Assembly: GCA_964599375.1 (NCBI GenBank)
Contig: CAZREW010000006.1
Location: forward strand, 28,285 to 92,284
Origin: an uncultured bacterium
GTDB taxonomy: Bacteria; Krumholzibacteriota; Krumholzibacteriia; Krumholzibacteriales; Krumholzibacteriaceae
Direction: 5' to 3'
DNA: 64,000 bases
Each line of letters begins with the position of its first letter. Position 1 is the first letter of the stretch. The notes below the pieces were generated by a model. It saw only the letters and a list, made by a program, of their open reading frames with translations, searched no databases and was not told where the DNA came from. The position numbers were made by a program, and so were the translations under genes. Below are positions 3,705-59,699 of this stretch, piece by piece.

Positions 3705-4899
3705 TTATGAGCGTCTGATCACGACGGCGGTGGTATCGTCCTGCAGCCTGGCGCTACCTGCAAAATCCCTGACGGCGGCGAACAGGCCGCGGATCATCTC
3801 GTGAGCGGGAATCGCCATGTTCGCGCGCATAAATCCCTTCAGGCGCTCCTCGCCGAAGATCTCACCCGCGGCGTTCGTAGCCTCGAGGACCCCATCGGTG
3901 AAAAGCACGAGCATGTCGCCGGGATCGATGAACGCGAACCCGCGGTTGAAATCGGTGGTCTCGAGCGGGCCGAGGATCGTCCCGCCGACATCGAGCTTCT
4001 CGATACGGTCAGCCTTGAACAGCAGTGGAGGAGGATGGCCGGCGTTCACGTATACGAGCGTGCCCCCGGGCTCCAGTTCCCCGTAAAAGAGCGAGATGAA
4101 CCTTGTGGAGAGCTGGCTGCGGTTGATCACCGAGTTGAGCTTGCGAAGCACGCCAGAGATCTTCATCTCCTTCTCCATGCCCATGCGCAGTCCGGTGACG
4201 ACATCGCGGGCCAGCAGCGCGGCGGGCAGGCCATGGCCGCTCGCGTCGCCAACAGCTACGCTCAGCACTCCCTCGGCGAGGACCGAGAAATCATAGAGAT
4301 CGCCGCCGACCCTCTCGGCGGCCTCCATCCTCCCGGCGATCTCATACCCCGGGAAATGAGGCTCTATGCGGGGCAGCAGGCTCTTCTGGATCTCGTACGC
4401 TTCCTGAAGATCGGCCGAGAACCGGCTCGTCGACGAGCTGAAATTCAGCGTTGAGCGGATCGTGTTCAGGGAGAACTCGAGGGTCTCCCGGACCCAGCCG
4501 TCCCCGAGCCTGAAGACCATGAGACGTTCATCGTCCTCACCCAGCATCACGGCGACGCTGTTCTTTCCCCACGGAGGATCGACTGTATCGATGAATATGT
4601 AGTTCTTGTGGTGGGACAGAAGCCTTATGGCCTCGTCTCCGACCGGGATCGATGCGGGCCAGCTTCCCGCCTCAGAGCCGCTGACCTGGTCCGTCCTCCG
4701 GTAGACTTTTCCGTAAAGACGGTAGACGCATCCGCTCTTTATTCCCAGGTCCTCGCCCACGGATTGGACCAGCTCGCTCAAGACGAGAGAGAGCATCTCC
4801 TTCATCGACGCGCCTCTGCCGATCCGTGTCAGAAGAGCGTCGAGCTTCCTGTAGAATGCTTTCGGCTGAAAAACGCCAGGTTCCGACATCGATCCTCTC
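3705..4899 (-). CDS. PP2C-family serine phosphatase (SpoIIE/RsbU-like) with N-terminal GAF-like domain
   Basis: Motifs GGDLYDF, VAVGDASGHG, FTDGVLEA typical of the SpoIIE/PP2C phosphatase domain. Start at MSEPGVF (ATG 4899) with GGAGAGGA upstream. Sits upstream of the Lon-like gene on the same strand. Confidence 0.75.
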
Positions 4900-39752: not shown

Positions 39753-39767
39753 TGGCACGCACCTTGC
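39753..39767 (+). promoter_or_regulatory. Sigma-54 promoter (TGGCAC-GCACC-TTGC), consensus match
   Basis: Perfect -24/-12 elements with N5 spacing, inside a ~500-nt AT-rich leader, ~130 nt upstream of ATG 39899. Confidence 0.6.
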
Positions 39768-39898
39768 GGAAGTAATCAATGCCAGTAAACTGTACTTTAC
39801 ACCATGAGTCAGCACCGCCCGGACTGCATCAATTATCGATGTAACCTGTTGAAAAGACAGGGCCGGGGAAAAACCGGATAAAGGGGGTTTCCGGTAAG

Positions 39899-41548
39899 AT
39901 GAGCACGAAAAAGAAGGACCCGACGAAGGATTTTTACGAGGATGTCGAGAGTGACCTCGACCATCTCGAGGGATCAGTAGCGGTCAGACAGAGCAAGGAT
40001 ATTTCGGGCCAGCTCGCTGAAAGCAGGCATCGCGTGCAAAAGCTCGAGATGCTGACAGAGATCACGCAGGCGATGAACTCGACCCTCAATCTCAACGAGC
40101 TCCTGTCGCACATCGTCGATTCGACGATCAAGATCGCCGACATGGACCGCGGGTTCCTGATGCTCAGGAACAAGGCCGGCGAGCTCGAGTTCCGGATAGC
40201 GAGAAGCAGCAGGCAGCAGAATCTCGGCGAAAACGACTTCGAGGTCAGCCATACGATCATAGGGGAAGCCGCAGACAAGGGCAAACCCCTCTTCATCTCC
40301 AATCTGGACAAGAACGGCAGGTACAAGGACCAGGAGAGCGTGCTCGACCTGCAGCTCAAGACTGCCGTCTGCCTCCCCCTTATACGCGACGATGTGGTGA
40401 TCGGCGTCATCTATACCGACGCCAGCAGGCTCAGTATCGAGATCGAGAAGGAGGACATGCCGATCTTCGAGGCATTTGCCGTCCAGGCTGCGATCGCGAT
40501 CGAGAACGCGCGGCTTCACGGCGAGCTGCTTCTTTCCAAGGAGAACCTCACAAGGGAGAACCTCGAGCTCAGGGCGGTCCTTTCCGAGAAGTACGAATTC
40601 TCCGGTATAATCGGCAAGAGCAAGGCGATGCAGGAGATCTTCACCACGATAAGGAAGATCTCCCCGTTCGATACGACCGTCCTGATCACCGGTGCCACAG
40701 GGACAGGCAAGGAGCTCATTGCCAAAGCCATCCATTTCAACGGTCCCCGCAAGACGAATCCTCTGGTCACGATAAACTGCGGAGCGATGGCGCCCGAGCT
40801 CCTCGAGAGTGAGCTCTTCGGACACAAGAAGGGGTCGTTCACAGGCGCAGTCAGCGACAAGCCCGGACTGTTCGAGACCGCAAGCGGCGGCACCCTCTTT
40901 CTAGACGAGATAGGCGACATGCCGCAACCGCTGCAGGTAAAGCTCCTGCGCGCCCTTCAGGAAGGTGAGATAAGGAGGATCGGGGAGAATACAAACCGTC
41001 ACGTGGATGTCCGGGTCATAGCAGCGACAAACCGCGACCTCAAGGAGGACATCGAGGCCGGCAGGTTCCGCCAGGACCTCTACTACAGGCTCAACGTGGT
41101 CCCCATCACCATACCGCCTCTGAATGAGAGGGGGGAGGATATACTGCCCCTGACTCAGCATTTCCTCGAGAAGTACTCCGCGAAGATGAACAAGGGCGAA
41201 GTCGGGATAGCCCCCGATGTCATGAAGATGATACTTGCCAATCCGTGGCCCGGTAACGTAAGGGAGCTCGAGAACACTGTCGAGAGGGCGCTCGCGCTCT
41301 GCGGCGACTCCACCACCCTGTCGATGATCCATTTCCCGCAACTCGGTCACGGCGGCCTAATACTAGGCGGCGTGGATTCTGGACGTTCGCTGAAGGAAAA
41401 GATGCGGGTGGTCGAGAAGCAGTTCATCATCGAGGCCCTGGAGGAAACGGGCGGAAAGATAACTAGGGCGGCGGAACTGCTTGATGTGACACGTCAGCAC
41501 CTTCATAATAAGATCCGGCAGTACGAGCTCAACAGAAAGAAGCGCTGA
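39899..41548 (+). CDS. Sigma-54-dependent activator with N-terminal GAF domain
   Basis: GAF-like region (GFLMLRNKAGELEF...VCLPLIRDDVVIGVIYTD), GATGTGKE, GSFTGA, RFRQDLYYRL, C-terminal HTH. Confidence 0.85.
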   Translation: MSTKKKDPTKDFYEDVESDLDHLEGSVAVRQSKDISGQLAESRHRVQKLEMLTEITQAMNSTLNLNELLSHIVDSTIKIADMDRGFLMLRNKAGELEFRIARSSRQQNLGENDFEVSHTIIGEAADKGKPLFISNLDKNGRYKDQESVLDLQLKTAVCLPLIRDDVVIGVIYTDASRLSIEIEKEDMPIFEAFAVQAAIAIENARLHGELLLSKENLTRENLELRAVLSEKYEFSGIIGKSKAMQEIFTTIRKISPFDTTVLITGATGTGKELIAKAIHFNGPRKTNPLVTINCGAMAPELLESELFGHKKGSFTGAVSDKPGLFETASGGTLFLDEIGDMPQPLQVKLLRALQEGEIRRIGENTNRHVDVRVIAATNRDLKEDIEAGRFRQDLYYRLNVVPITIPPLNERGEDILPLTQHFLEKYSAKMNKGEVGIAPDVMKMILANPWPGNVRELENTVERALALCGDSTTLSMIHFPQLGHGGLILGGVDSGRSLKEKMRVVEKQFIIEALEETGGKITRAAELLDVTRQHLHNKIRQYELNRKKR

Positions 41549-42082: not shown

Positions 42083-43093
42083 TCAGCAGTCCTTCTTCTC
42101 CCGTAACACTATGCCGTGCCTGCGCATACGATACAGGAGAGTCGTCCTCTTCAGGCCGAGGATCGACGCCGCCCTGCTGTGGTTCGACCCAGCCCTCCTG
42201 AGGGCGCCCAGTATCTCCTCCCTCTCAAACCTGCGGAGCTTTCCGTCGAGCCCTGTCTGGTCCCCGGGCGTGGGATCGAGGAGACCGGACACTATCCCTG
42301 CCGGGAGATCCGTCATCTCGAGCCTGCCCGAACACTTTCTCAGGGCCGCCGCGACTACCTCGTTCTGAAGCTGCCTGACATTGCCCGGCCAATCGAACGA
42401 CTCGAGGGCAAGCTGTGCCGCGGGCGAGACCGTCAGCGGCCCTATCGAGTATTCAGAGACCAGGCGTGATATGAAATGAGAGGAGAGAGGCATTATGTCG
42501 GCTTTGCGCTCACGCAGCGGGGGAATCCGGAAAACGACCGCGGACAGCCTGTAATACAGGTCGTCCCTGAAGGAACCCAGCTCTATTTCAGCTGGCAGGT
42601 CGCGGTTTGTGGCCGCGACGACCCTCGCGCCAGATCTTCTCGCGACACTCTCGCCTACAGGCATATACTCCCCTGAATCGAGGAATCTCAGGAGTCTTGC
42701 CTGGGCCCCGGGATCCGCTTCACCGATCTCATCGAGAAACAGCGTACCTCTGTCGGCTGCGGCGGCGAGGCCGGACTGATGCCTCACGGCGCCGGTGAAC
42801 GCTCCCTTGACATGACCGAAAAGGAAACTCTCGAACAGGTCTCCACGGAGAGTGGAAGCATTAACGGGGATAAAAGGGGATCTCGCCCTGCCGCTCCATC
42901 TGTGGATAAGCCTGGCAACGACTTCCTTGCCCGTGCCGGACTCTCCCGTTATAAGGACCGGCACCGGAAACGGGGATATCCTGCGGATCTCATCGAGGAG
43001 TCCCTTCATGGCTGGATCAGCTGTGATGAAGGCTGGCGATTTTTCCTTCTGCATATCGGTCGGTCCGCCCAGCCGGATGCCCGCATCCGACAC
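42083..43093 (-). CDS. Sigma-54 activator lacking a sensory domain (AAA+ plus HTH only; PspF/HrpS-like)
   Basis: GESGTGKE, canonical GAFTGA, FRDDLYYRL, C-terminal HTH. Only ~25 residues precede the AAA+ core. GTG at 43093 has GGGGGAG 7 nt upstream; ATG 43054 is an alternative. Confidence 0.8.
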   Translation of the reverse strand: MSDAGIRLGGPTDMQKEKSPAFITADPAMKGLLDEIRRISPFPVPVLITGESGTGKEVVARLIHRWSGRARSPFIPVNASTLRGDLFESFLFGHVKGAFTGAVRHQSGLAAAADRGTLFLDEIGEADPGAQARLLRFLDSGEYMPVGESVARRSGARVVAATNRDLPAEIELGSFRDDLYYRLSAVVFRIPPLRERKADIMPLSSHFISRLVSEYSIGPLTVSPAAQLALESFDWPGNVRQLQNEVVAAALRKCSGRLEMTDLPAGIVSGLLDPTPGDQTGLDGKLRRFEREEILGALRRAGSNHSRAASILGLKRTTLLYRMRRHGIVLREKKDC

Positions 43094-43292
43094 TCCCGGT
43101 CTCCCCCGGACACAGAAACGGGAAGACGAAAGTGTCCCCCCTTTTCGCTGTCTCGGGCGGCCTCACGGATGTGCCGCCGTATGTTCAGGTTTCGGAAGGG
43201 ATTATACCAGCAATGGCAGTATCTGTCAAATGCGCTGACATAGGTATAACTCCTCAACTTATTGTGATATTTACCGTTAGTCTTGTTGGATA

Positions 43293-43321
43293 TTGACAAA
43301 AAGGAACCGTTATGGTATACT
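43293..43321 (+). promoter_or_regulatory. Consensus sigma-70 promoter TTGACA-N17-TATACT
   Basis: Read directly from the sequence. No ORF follows it. Confidence 0.6.
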
Positions 43322-43327
43322 GCACCA

Positions 43328-43452
43328 CGATTAGCAACAGGTTCCGAGGGGTTGCTTGAAGACCTGACATCTTAGGATTACTTGAATTACTGACACCAGT
43401 TCGGCCTAGATTGCTTATCTCGCGCCCGCCTCACGGCGGGCGCTCCTTTTTT
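43328..43452 (+). ncRNA. Candidate small non-coding RNA (~125 nt), family unknown
   Basis: Bounded by a consensus sigma-70 promoter and an intrinsic terminator (GCGCCCGCC-TCAC-GGCGGGCGC + TCCTTTTTT at 43422..43452). No ATG and no RBS inside. Internal hairpin GCAAC-AGGUUCCGAGGG-GUUGC. Confidence 0.45.
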
Positions 43453-45032
43453 CAGTGCTCCTGTAGATCGAGCCCCTTCCCCGTGCGCTTCGTGACGGAC
43501 CGCTCCCAGAGATAGAAAGCCATGAAGACGACGGCGAAGCAGAAGTAGCCGAACGCCCAGGGCCCGCCGGCGTTCCATCCGAGCACGCTTACCGTCTCGT
43601 TCCCCGAAAACTCGTAGGTGTGGATCACGCCGAAGAAAGCCATTATCGCCGCGGCGAGGGACCAGAGCGAGGCCTTGCGGAATTCCCGTTCGATAAGGAA
43701 GACGCTGATCGCGGCGATGATCATCGATGTGAATATGAACCCCCGCTCGAGGGCGAGCATCCCCCTGAACCCGTTAATAGGGACACCCTTTGCCGCCTCC
43801 TTCGTGAGCGTCGTTCCAGCCCCCTGGTATCCCAGCTTGAGCAGATTGATGCCCCACGCGGCGAAGGCGGGGAAGAGGCCGACCACTACCGCGGGAGCAT
43901 GGTTCCTCGGCGTAGCCTGGAACGCCTGGGCCGAGATGATTATACCGATCCACAGGACGATCGCGATACCCGCCTCCATCGGTATGATCGTATTTATCAG
44001 ACGGACCATCCCGAACAATGCGACGATGACGAAGAAGATGCCGTTGAGAACCGAGTATCCCGTCCTCGCGCCCAGCCCCTTCCAGCCCGGATGCCCGATA
44101 TATATCGTTGTCGGGAAGCACGAGCCGAAGAACGCGGCGATCAGGGTCCCGATCCCGTTGACCGCGAGCGATGGCCTGGTCTCATACCTATCGCCGGCAG
44201 CCTCGGCGCTCTCGAGGTTCTGCAGCGACCCGAGGACATTAAACAGCGCCATAGGGATGATGATGGAGAAATACTTCCACATGTAGGGGCTCCTGAGGAT
44301 ATCGAAAAGGTCCGCTCCGGCGAACCTGGGAGTGTAGAACCCGACCTGCGACGCGGCCGCCGATACTGCTCCGCCGTCCATCAATCCGAACACCCATGCC
44401 AGCACGGTCCCCGCCGCAAGGGCGACCGCTCCCCCGGGCAGGCCGAACGGGAACTTCACGCGCGCGAAGTACTGGATCAATATGATCGCCAGAGGCAACA
44501 TCGCGATGAGCGGTTTCTCGAATGTCTGGAACGCGAAATCCATCGATATGAATGTTATCGCTATACCGGCCAGCGTCGAGAGCAGAGCGGCCCTCGGCGT
44601 TATCCGCCTGAGGACGTCGACGAAGAAGGCCCCCGAGAACTCGATTATCCCGCTGCCGAGACAGGCTAAAAGGCCTACTTTCCAGGCCATCTCGTAGCTT
44701 CCCGTCTCCCTGTAGACCGGCCCCATTATGAAGATCAGGTAGGCGAAGAGGCTGACCGTGTTGATACCGTAGGGAAGCGCCGTGACGTCAGTGCGCCTCT
44801 CCCTTTTAGCGAGCTTTCTCGCCTGCCATGAATAGAAGAGATTGCCTATGATGACCGAAAGCGCCGCGCCGGGCATAATCCTCGTGAAAACGAACTCGGA
44901 CGGGATGCCGGCGATGATCGGGCAGAGCGTCGCGATGAGAAGAAACTGGATGAGATTGTCGATGGCCAGCCCGAAGAAGCCGTCGATATCGCGTTTCACG
45001 ATCCATGGATACGCGAATGAGCTGTCTTCCAT
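43452..45032 (-). CDS. NCS2-family nucleobase permease-like transporter (AzgA/COG2252-like)
   Basis: 526 aa, ~13-14 TM. C-terminal half shows the GSxFxxTxYxG...GARTG...IPxEAxxAxLxWxG pattern seen in AzgA-type permeases. Family assignment is tentative. Confidence 0.45.
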   Translation of the reverse strand: MEDSSFAYPWIVKRDIDGFFGLAIDNLIQFLLIATLCPIIAGIPSEFVFTRIMPGAALSVIIGNLFYSWQARKLAKRERRTDVTALPYGINTVSLFAYLIFIMGPVYRETGSYEMAWKVGLLACLGSGIIEFSGAFFVDVLRRITPRAALLSTLAGIAITFISMDFAFQTFEKPLIAMLPLAIILIQYFARVKFPFGLPGGAVALAAGTVLAWVFGLMDGGAVSAAASQVGFYTPRFAGADLFDILRSPYMWKYFSIIIPMALFNVLGSLQNLESAEAAGDRYETRPSLAVNGIGTLIAAFFGSCFPTTIYIGHPGWKGLGARTGYSVLNGIFFVIVALFGMVRLINTIIPMEAGIAIVLWIGIIISAQAFQATPRNHAPAVVVGLFPAFAAWGINLLKLGYQGAGTTLTKEAAKGVPINGFRGMLALERGFIFTSMIIAAISVFLIEREFRKASLWSLAAAIMAFFGVIHTYEFSGNETVSVLGWNAGGPWAFGYFCFAVVFMAFYLWERSVTKRTGKGLDLQEH

Positions 45033-53370: not shown

Positions 53371-54282
53371 TTATTCCCTGTCGAATCTCGTCATGTCCGA
53401 GAGTCTGTTATAACGCCTTTTGATTTCTTCGATATCGAGGGCTCTGAGCCTCTCCACGGAGAATTTCTCACAGGTGAAACTTGCGGAGACGGTCCCGTAG
53501 ACCATCGCTTTTTTCAAGGTGCCGCTGTTTATGTCTCCGGCCGAAGCGAGGTATCCCATGAATCCGCCGGCAAAGGTGTCCCCCGCGCCTGTCGGGTCGA
53601 GCACGTCATCGAGGGCGAATGCCGACGAGATGAACTGGAAGTCCCGCGTGAAGAGGTGAGCCCCGTTCTCTCCCTTCTTTATCACGACGACCTCCGGTCC
53701 CATTGAAAGGACCTTGTCCGCGGCCCTGAGCAGGTTCTTTTCTCCGCTGAGCTGTCTTGCCTCGCCGTCGTTTATGAACACGATGTCGACCTTCTCGAGA
53801 ACGCGCCTGAGCTCTTCGGGTTTTCCCTCGATCCAGAAGTTCATCGTGTCGATTCCGGTCACAGGCTTTTCGGGGAACTGCTCGAGGACGGACAGCTGGA
53901 GTTCGGGGTCTATGTTGCCGAGAAAAAGATATTCCGCCGACAGGTAACTCCCGGGCAGCTTCGGGCTGAAGTCCTCGAATACGTTGAGTTCGGTCACGAT
54001 AGTGTCGCGCTCATTGGGATCCGCTCCGTACCGGCCCTCCCAGAAGAATGTCTTTCCGCCCGGCACGGTCGCGAGCCCCTCTAGGTCGACGCCCCTCTCC
54101 TCCAGGATGCCCCTGTGCTCAGCGGTGAAATCCTCGCCGACGACTCCGACAAGCATCGGCCTGCAGAACCTGCTGGCGATCATCGATGAATATACGGCAG
54201 ATCCGCCTATCGCCCTTTCCACCCTGCCCCTTGGCGTCACGATAGTATCGAATGCTACCGAACCGACTATGACCAGGCTCAT
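53371..54282 (-). CDS. PfkB-family carbohydrate/nucleoside kinase
   Basis: N-terminal GG-containing motif plus C-terminal DPTGAGDTFAGGF. Confidence 0.8.
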   Translation of the reverse strand: MSLVIVGSVAFDTIVTPRGRVERAIGGSAVYSSMIASRFCRPMLVGVVGEDFTAEHRGILEERGVDLEGLATVPGGKTFFWEGRYGADPNERDTIVTELNVFEDFSPKLPGSYLSAEYLFLGNIDPELQLSVLEQFPEKPVTGIDTMNFWIEGKPEELRRVLEKVDIVFINDGEARQLSGEKNLLRAADKVLSMGPEVVVIKKGENGAHLFTRDFQFISSAFALDDVLDPTGAGDTFAGGFMGYLASAGDINSGTLKKAMVYGTVSASFTCEKFSVERLRALDIEEIKRRYNRLSDMTRFDRE

Positions 54283-58653: not shown

Positions 58654-58681
58654 TTGACATCAGGCGGGAATCTGCTATAAT
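58654..58681 (+). promoter_or_regulatory. Near-consensus sigma-70 promoter TTGACA-N16-TATAAT upstream of the NadE-like/carrier/ligase cassette
   Basis: Read directly, ~55 nt upstream of start 58734. Confidence 0.55.
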
Positions 58682-58733: not shown

Positions 58734-59699
58734 TTGAATTTCAATAAGGACAGCCTAAAGATCGATGCCGGCCGTGTTGCCGAAGAACTGGCCCGGTCCG
58801 TGCGGACGCAGATCCGGAGCAAACTCAGGAAAACCGGGGCGGTAGTAGGTATTTCAGGTGGGCTGGATTCATCGGTGGTAGCGGCCCTTTGTGTCAAGGC
58901 GCTGGGGCCCAAACGGGTTGTCGGGATCATGATGCCGGAAGAGGATTCCTCTCCGGACAGCCAGAAACTGGCGCAGGACCTGGCTGACAGGCTCGGCATA
59001 GAAACGGTCGTCGAGAACATCACGCCGGGTCTCGAGGGCCTGAAGTGCTACAGCCGTAGAGATGAAGCGATCAGGCAGATCTTCCCGGAATACGACAGCA
59101 CATACAAGAACAAGATAACGATCTCCACCAACATCCTCGAGGATGAGACTTTCAATTTCTTCAACCTCACGATCGAGAGCCCGGGCGGCGAGGAAAAAAC
59201 GATGCGCATGCCAGTCTCGGCGTATCTCCAGATCGTGGCAGCCTCCAACCTCAAGCAGAGGCTCCGCATGACTATGCTCTATTATCACGCGGAGAAACGC
59301 AACTATGCCGTGGCAGGCACCGGCAACAAGGACGAACACGAACAGGGATTCTTCGTCAAATACGGCGACGGCGGCGCAGATCTGAAACCGATCGCGCATC
59401 TGTTCAAGATGCAGGTCTTCCAGCTTGCCGAAGAGCTGTCCGTAGGCCACGATATAATCGGGCGCATCCCGACTACGGATACTTACAGCGCCGGTTCCAC
59501 CCAGGAAGAGTTTTTCTTCGGTCTCGACTTCTTCCGGATGGACATGCTGTGGTATGCGATGGAAAACAAGGTTTCTTCTGCCGAAGCCGCCGCTGTGCTT
59601 GGTCTTACGCCGCATCAGGTCGAGAGAGGGTACGCCAATATCCAGCGAAAGATCGACGCCACGGAATATCTCCGGATGTATCCGCTTGAAATAGAGTAG
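58734..59699 (+). CDS. NAD synthetase-family PP-loop ATP pyrophosphatase (NadE-like, no glutaminase domain), copy 1
   Basis: PP-loop VGISGGLDSS and NadE-specific FFVKYGDGGADLKPI. TTG start. Confidence 0.7.
   Translation: MNFNKDSLKIDAGRVAEELARSVRTQIRSKLRKTGAVVGISGGLDSSVVAALCVKALGPKRVVGIMMPEEDSSPDSQKLAQDLADRLGIETVVENITPGLEGLKCYSRRDEAIRQIFPEYDSTYKNKITISTNILEDETFNFFNLTIESPGGEEKTMRMPVSAYLQIVAASNLKQRLRMTMLYYHAEKRNYAVAGTGNKDEHEQGFFVKYGDGGADLKPIAHLFKMQVFQLAEELSVGHDIIGRIPTTDTYSAGSTQEEFFFGLDFFRMDMLWYAMENKVSSAEAAAVLGLTPHQVERGYANIQRKIDATEYLRMYPLEIE

Follow-up and report, generated by a model that had tools for sequence, protein, structure and literature searches.

Results

A predicted small RNA gene between a permease gene and a sigma-54 activator gene

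The stretch of DNA that we analysed (hereafter the window, 64 kb at its full length) carries, in the space between two minus-strand genes, a plus-strand unit that is predicted to give rise to a small non-coding RNA (Table 1). The unit is divergent from the gene of a sigma-54 activator and convergent with a permease gene, which is the layout that an earlier note on this DNA had read from the sequence. No Pfam or NCBIfam match was obtained for the permease reading frame, and its product is classified by its close homologues, which are from Candidatus Krumholzibacteriota and are named xanthine/uracil or adenine/guanine/hypoxanthine permeases. The activator had been called 'AAA+-only' in the same note; this stands insofar as neither Pfam nor NCBIfam finds an N-terminal sensor domain, and is slightly inexact in that an HTH_8 domain is also present. 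Against the PspF models the protein scores 223 bits (TIGR02974) and 186 bits (NF008622), both below the respective cut-offs. Its start is probably the ATG at 43054 and not the GTG at 43093 (open reading frame 42083..43093), because this ATG and the N-terminus that it opens (MQK..SP.FIT.DP) are conserved.

Table 1. Features of the permease-activator region (window coordinates) and the homologues of the RNA (coordinates of the respective sequences)
Feature	Position	Strand	Basis or remark
Sensor-less sigma-54 activator gene	42083..43054	-	AAA+, lid and HTH_8 domains (Pfam, NCBIfam)
Structured 5' leader of the activator, ~140 nt	43055..43194	-	Alignment, folding, terminator scan
Divergent activator promoter	43201..43229	-	Perfect TTGACA-17-TATAAT with TG, 12/12
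RNA promoter	43293..43321	+	Consensus scan: TTGACA 43293-43298, 17-nt spacer, TATACT 43316-43321
Predicted non-coding transcript, ~124 nt	43328..43452	+	Conservation bounds, covariance model R1, nhmmer
Nearly invariant 5' block, GAUUAGCAAYAGGUUCCGAGGG	43329..43350	+	Alignment A5: only columns 11, 15 and 16 vary
Second nearly invariant block, ACAUCUUAGGAUUAC	43367..43381	+	Alignment A5, columns 40-54: only 45 and 47 vary
RNA intrinsic terminator	43422..43452	+	Terminator scan: 9-bp G-C stem, 4-nt loop, T6
NCS2/AGZA-family purine-type permease gene	43452..45032	-	Source names of its homologues; convergent with the RNA
RNA homologue L006	5616-5739
RNA homologue L086	4593-4717
RNA homologue L091 (= L092)	170-294
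RNA homologue L093	2068-2193
RNA homologue L096 (= L097)	2212-2336
RNA homologue L098	1-110		Cut by the contig end

The unit is bounded by a near-consensus promoter and an intrinsic terminator

The promoter of the RNA, TTGACA-N17-TATACT, is present as previously described, agrees with the consensus at 11 of 12 positions, and additionally carries an extended -10 TG (43313-43314), the spacer ending in TGG. Among the seven distinct homologues of the RNA (see below) the -35 hexamer is invariant and the spacer measures 17 nt in every one, and the -10 hexamer reads TATAAT, TATACT or TATAGT. The claim that consensus promoters are rare in this DNA is borne out by shuffle counts: with up to two mismatches allowed, TTGACA-N14-TGnTATAAT occurs at four sites in the 64 kb versus 0.07 expected, two of these four standing back to back in the permease-activator spacer, and perfect TTGACA-N16-18-TATAAT occurs at two sites versus 0.00 in shuffles. 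Besides the activator promoter (Table 1), the other perfect promoter, TTGACA-16-TATAAT, lies at 58654-58681 (+), ~50 nt upstream of an open reading frame (58734..59699) with a PP-loop-like motif, SGGxDS; ordinary genes of this organism are thus served by canonical sigma-70 promoters.

At the other end of the unit, the terminator stem GCGCCCGCC/GGCGGGCGC (43422-43443) consists of nine G-C pairs around the loop TCAC and is followed by TCC and then by the six T's at 43447-43452. At the last of these T's, 43452, the complement of the permease stop codon begins, so that the overlap between T-run and stop codon is as it had been reported. The stem is 100% paired in all homologues and shows one compensatory double change from C-G to U-A (columns 101/112). 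As a U-run is missing behind the hairpin when it is read on the minus strand, where the terminator scan lists no terminator either, the terminator works in one direction only.

The predicted transcript is conserved as a block and does not encode a protein

Covariance model R1 and nhmmer both recover exactly the listed span of the transcript in the seven homologues. The +1 would lie at about 43327-43329, judging from the sequence, and conservation sets in at G43329, the predicted +1, and does not continue past the T-run. The discriminator (43322-43328, giving 6-7 nt between the -10 hexamer and the +1) differs in every homologue, and most of the inter-promoter spacer and the DNA downstream of the RNA are not conserved. 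The earlier note had described the unit as ~125 nt lacking a coding start, and a six-frame check agrees: no ATG- or GTG-initiated frame in the transcript survives, and stop codons interrupt each of the six frames in several homologues. Variable columns are spread over the three codon phases as 10/7/14, which is no clear coding signature. A small-protein gene was consequently rejected.

Homologues were sought with the permease and activator proteins as anchors and with one DNA pattern scan of metagenome contigs, after which RNA copies were recovered by BLAST, nhmmer and the covariance model. The permease-anchored genome scan returned only four Krumholzibacteria loci and the metagenome pattern scan one new locus; a relaxed pattern gave 12 matches in viral contigs, which matched the pattern alone and were discarded as chance. 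The RNA homologues obtained are the seven distinct sequences of the window, L006, L086, L091 (identical to L092), L093, L096 (identical to L097) and L098, and an identical locus is present in five JGI metagenome samples. In all seven the RNA is located immediately upstream of, and on the strand opposite to, an activator orthologue that shares 69-80% identity with the protein of the window. The RNA is missing from L087/L088, where the permease is 81% identical and separated from the activator gene by 46 nt, from L094 and L095, whose activators are 64% and 59% identical, and from L007 and L009, which are arranged differently, the permease gene not being followed directly by an activator gene; in L008 neither BLAST, nhmmer nor the covariance model gave an RNA match. 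No extra copies were found by nhmmer or the covariance model in the window or in the related RNA-less loci. Since it is absent where the activator is 64% identical or less, and from other related loci, the RNA family does not reach beyond a narrow clade of uncultured Krumholzibacteriota. We also observed, at the equivalent place in L089 (CP070727.1, ~4700-4860, minus strand), an unrelated short promoter-terminator unit, composed of TTGAAA-17-TATAAT, ~75 nt and a GGGGAUG/CAUCCCC hairpin with a T-run, that sits on the opposite strand between a permease gene and that of a 613-aa sigma-54 activator and that could be an analogous, non-homologous sRNA.

The strength of selection was gauged from the 21 pairs of homologues. 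Over the RNA body (alignment columns 1-94) the mean nucleotide identity is 0.85, compared with 0.49 at the four-fold degenerate sites of the adjacent activator gene, which are essentially saturated, and with a mean amino-acid identity of 0.76 for the activator protein. The RNA segment is therefore under purifying selection far stronger than that on neutral sites. The earlier note had also called for a look at the conservation of promoter, hairpin and terminator in relatives, and all of these are kept as a block in the seven distinct sequences.

The body of the RNA probably folds into an imperfect rod

The RNA of the window has a predicted minimum free energy of -44 kcal/mol (z = -3.4 versus shuffles), and the folding energies of all homologues folded fall at z = -2.4 to -3.8. 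In the single-sequence folds of most homologues the body is closed by GAU-UAGCAAU on the 5' side pairing with AUUGCU-(U)AUC on the 3' side, and the RNAalifold consensus agrees with this picture of an imperfect rod whose apical segment is conserved. Covariation support for the body fold was not obtained, the shuffle control not being exceeded (48/500); 25 of the 32 pairs of the body stems never vary. A rival local hairpin (GCAAY-loop-RUUGC) is nearly as compatible, and one of its pairs occurs as C-G, U-A and U.G. As the 5' structure, this hairpin is weakened by the L098 sequence, which breaks two of its five pairs and leaves the long-range stem intact. We therefore favour, as a probable although unproven model, the rod over the local hairpin for the ~94-nt body. 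The loop dinucleotide UU is replaced by AA in L093, with no obvious change in a partner. Of the two nearly invariant blocks, the 5' one is a candidate seed or else the candidate 5' strand of the closing stem, and the second is a candidate seed that in the rod model is apical and mostly unpaired.

The activator gene, not the permease gene, is the constant neighbour

The convergent permease gene stands beside the RNA in the window, L006, L086 and L093. It is absent from L091/L092, where the next gene is a co-directional Big_1-domain gene with its own promoter, and in L096/L097 it is reduced to a 3' remnant that is called as a 47-aa gene; RNA, activator and Big_1 gene are kept in both of these cases. 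This indicates that the permease was recently lost or gained within the clade. Conversely, L087/L088 and L094 possess the same permease-activator pair and no RNA. The overlap between RNA and permease gene amounts to 1 nt in the window and is absent from L006, L086 and L093, with ~35 extra bases between terminator and permease stop codon in L006. The constant neighbour of the RNA is thus the activator gene.

The spacer also contains an activator promoter and a structured activator leader, both of which the earlier note had missed. The hexamers of this promoter are invariant in the seven homologues, and the promoter is found in the RNA-less relatives L087, L094 and L095 as well. Within the leader, a block (AAAGGGGGGACACUUUCGUCUUCCCGUUUCUGU, 43144-43112 on the minus strand) forms a terminator-like hairpin that is almost identical in all seven sequences even though their neutral sites are saturated, and the two hairpins flanking it covary. 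As the RNA-less relatives have the same activator promoter and an analogous G-rich leader hairpin, the leader belongs with the activator rather than the RNA. Its role may be that of an attenuator or of a site for protein binding. In three homologous loci, BrnT/CopG-type toxin-antitoxin pairs lie just downstream of the activator gene (L092 3557-4038, L096 3644-4219, L098 1415-2014); the window has none there.

Midway between the divergent -35 boxes lies an inverted repeat, CAAC-NN-GTTG (43255-43264, plus strand), which has one mismatch in the window and is perfect in L006, L086, L091 and L098. It is a possible operator; as a specific operator it was set aside, the motif being too short for this: its 23 occurrences in the window compare with 13 expected and show no obvious association with regulatory regions. 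With up to two mismatches allowed, the spacer gave no match to a -24/-12 (GG-N10-GC) sigma-54 promoter, and the alignment of the DNA upstream of the RNA homologues contains sigma-70 elements only. A sigma-54-dependent sRNA of the Qrr/GlmY type was rejected on the lack of a -24/-12 element upstream of the RNA. The best sigma-54 promoter-like site nearby, TGGCACGCACCTTGCG (39753-39768, plus strand, one mismatch), is located ~130 nt upstream of the gene of a GAF-domain sigma-54 activator (39899..41548); over the whole window the number of such sites is not above chance.

Complementarity to candidate targets

Exact complements of the RNA within the 64-kb window reach 11 nt at most, a length at the level of chance, and the energies of duplexes between the RNA and the activator leader are no better than those of shuffled RNA. 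A duplex scan of the translation starts of 46 proxy genes gave as its best hit, at -26.5 kcal/mol, a PfkB-family kinase gene (53371..54282). The duplex is rich in G.U pairs and interrupted by a 28-nt internal loop, and we discarded this gene as a borderline and unconvincing target. Conserved target sites were thus not found, no complement in the 64-kb window or in the neighbouring leaders being above chance.

Discussion

Promoter, terminator, conservation as a block, purifying selection and the absence of coding potential together make a functional, non-coding and independently transcribed unit by far the best reading of this locus. That the segment is a real RNA gene appears highly likely from its sequence, and the more detailed proposition, a genuine and independently transcribed small non-coding RNA gene of ~124 nt that belongs to a narrow clade and is likely trans-acting, is in our judgement probable. 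The suggestion of the earlier note that this is likely a genuine sRNA is upheld by the block conservation, the purifying selection, the non-coding nature and the lack of a known family.

If the unit were instead a divergent member of a known family (6S, SRP, Y RNA, a CsrB/Rsm-type sponge or the like) or a small-protein gene, its rod-like fold with paired ends could be taken as vaguely 6S-like, but the body of ~94 nt compares with ~180 nt for 6S. There is one conserved GGA in the apical loop, and CsrA homologues exist in the phylum according to a paper on CsrA diversity, which describes no sRNA of the phylum (PMC13443453). The GGA (within GGAUUAC, columns 48-54) is a single one and not one of multiple loop GGAs, however, and a CsrA/RsmA-sequestering sRNA was rejected. 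The earlier note had named an Rfam cmscan as a check, and Rfam 15, run over the whole window at gathering thresholds, returned 0 matches, so that no known or housekeeping family was hit. A permissive search of 42900-43600 (E up to 10) returned mere noise in the form of three matches of 13-15 bits and E ~8, one in the activator leader and two covering only the terminator hairpin of the RNA. ARAGORN found neither tRNA nor tmRNA, and with all reading frames interrupted we consider membership in a known family, or a small-protein gene, highly improbable. We also found no reports of small RNAs in Krumholzibacteriota in a full-text literature search combining the phylum name with 'small RNA'. Just as improbable, to our mind, is that there is no RNA gene at all and that the conserved DNA comprises binding sites or an enhancer for the divergent activator promoter, with promoter and terminator motifs arising by chance. 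The block does lie 100-260 bp upstream of the activator start site, a typical enhancer distance, and the partly conserved inverted repeat CAAC-NN-GTTG stands between the promoters, but that motif is not meaningfully specific, and conservation runs continuously for ~125 bp and is bounded exactly by the consensus promoter and the terminator. Furthermore, the compensatory double change preserves the terminator stem, and the -35/-10 geometry is kept in 7/7 homologues.

For an RNA gene, the two neighbours suggest further roles. The earlier note had raised a convergent-transcription regulator of the permease, in which the RNA or its transcription would collide or pair with permease transcripts reading towards the activator gene, and would thereby regulate how the permease 3' end is processed or make activator expression independent of that of the permease. 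Permease and activator genes do share a strand with the RNA gene between them on the other one, read-through from the permease across the RNA gene is plausible given a terminator hairpin without a minus-strand U-run, and the short gap in L087/L088 has an operon-like look. The comparison of loci does not support this proposal, however, as the RNA is retained with equal conservation where the permease is absent (L091/L092) or a remnant (L096/L097), and a cis-antisense RNA of the permease was rejected on this failed co-occurrence and on the overlap of a single nucleotide in the window and of none in other homologues. Moreover, collision or antisense pairing does not need a body that is 85% conserved, because any antisense RNA is perfectly complementary by construction. 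We hold a cis-acting or convergent regulator to be unlikely, and assign a similarly small chance to the RNA being a functional partner of the adjacent activator that is controlled by it or controls it, for example via the leader or protein binding, and that would supply the regulatory input otherwise given by the missing sensor domain. Here the evidence is that 7/7 RNA homologues are immediately divergent from activator orthologues whatever the other neighbour, that the activator has an unusually conserved structured leader, and that sRNA genes beside a regulator gene have precedents in Qrr1/LuxO, GlmY/GlrR, OxyS/OxyR and GcvB/GcvA. But the promoter of the RNA is plain sigma-70 consensus in a spacer free of -24/-12 elements, the complementarity to the activator leader does not surpass that of shuffles, and activators of 59-64% identity, as well as that of L087 (not scored), share the promoter and the G-rich leader hairpin and lack the RNA. 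The linkage itself is weak evidence because the seven genomes are closely related and in general keep the same order of genes, and it may be mere synteny. In its boldest form, RNA and sensor-less activator would make up a two-gene module in which the RNA replaces the sensory domain via the leader or protein binding; neither leader pairing compared with shuffles nor the sigma-54 site scan gave a positive sign of an RNA-activator interaction, and we think such a module quite unlikely. If true, it would constitute an RNA-gated enhancer-binding-protein system.

The preferred reading remains a stand-alone small RNA acting in trans. RNA polymerase with the housekeeping sigma factor would start at the near-consensus extended -10 promoter, and transcription would end at the strong Rho-independent terminator, in that one direction only. 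The rod closed by GAU-UAGCAAU/AUUGCU-(U)AUC would leave ACAUCUUAGGAUUAC exposed and largely unpaired, with an A/U-rich stretch preceding the terminator, and the RNA would then serve as a riboregulator, one of its invariant segments pairing with mRNAs from elsewhere in the genome or binding a protein. Trans-acting base-pairing sRNAs typically have short invariant blocks, a U-tail and a strong terminator preceded by A/U-rich sequence, and on account of this architecture we take trans base-pairing as the most likely mode of action. By this analogy, and given that the RNA gene is real, we put the chance of trans base-pairing at about even and divide the rest among cis effects, protein binding and a connection with the activator.

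With its clear limits and strong constraint, the locus is a candidate from which a new RNA family could be built, and it shows near-canonical TTGACA/TATAAT promoters and classical intrinsic terminators in use in a lineage of the FCB group. Its practical value lies in annotation and in metatranscriptome mining; a new mechanistic question would arise only if the link to the activator were shown.

Comparison with known systems

Among the closest known systems is pspF-pspA, in which an enhancer-binding protein that lacks a sensor domain has a sigma-70 promoter of its own and is divergent from its target. Likewise, the locus described here has a sensor-less AAA+/HTH activator whose sigma-70 promoter stands back to back with a second transcription unit, but this divergent unit is no sigma-54-dependent protein operon: it is predicted to yield a short non-coding RNA, from a sigma-70 promoter. 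Small RNA genes also adjoin genes of sigma-54 enhancer-binding proteins in Qrr1/LuxO of Vibrio, GlmY/GlrR of enterobacteria and CrcZ/CbrB of Pseudomonas, where the sRNAs have -24/-12 sigma-54 promoters. The RNA reported here shares the neighbourhood, but has no sequence similarity to these RNAs and is preceded by a near-perfect sigma-70 extended -10 promoter, with no TGGCAC-N5-TTGC in the spacer. In enterobacteria, finally, OxyS (beside oxyR) and GcvB (beside gcvA) are trans-acting sRNAs with stand-alone genes that diverge from the gene of a regulator. The RNA differs from them in lacking any sequence or Rfam similarity, in its host, which belongs to an uncultured FCB-group phylum, and in that the regulator beside the Krumholzibacteriota RNA is a sigma-54 enhancer-binding protein. 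Like them, it is ~100-200 nt long, has its own sigma-70 promoter and no ORF, is divergent from a transcription-factor gene, carries an A/U-rich stretch before a Rho-independent terminator, and contains short conserved segments that are potential seeds. The RNA thus matches no catalogued family and is nonetheless an ordinary kind of bacterial small RNA with a classical stand-alone layout.
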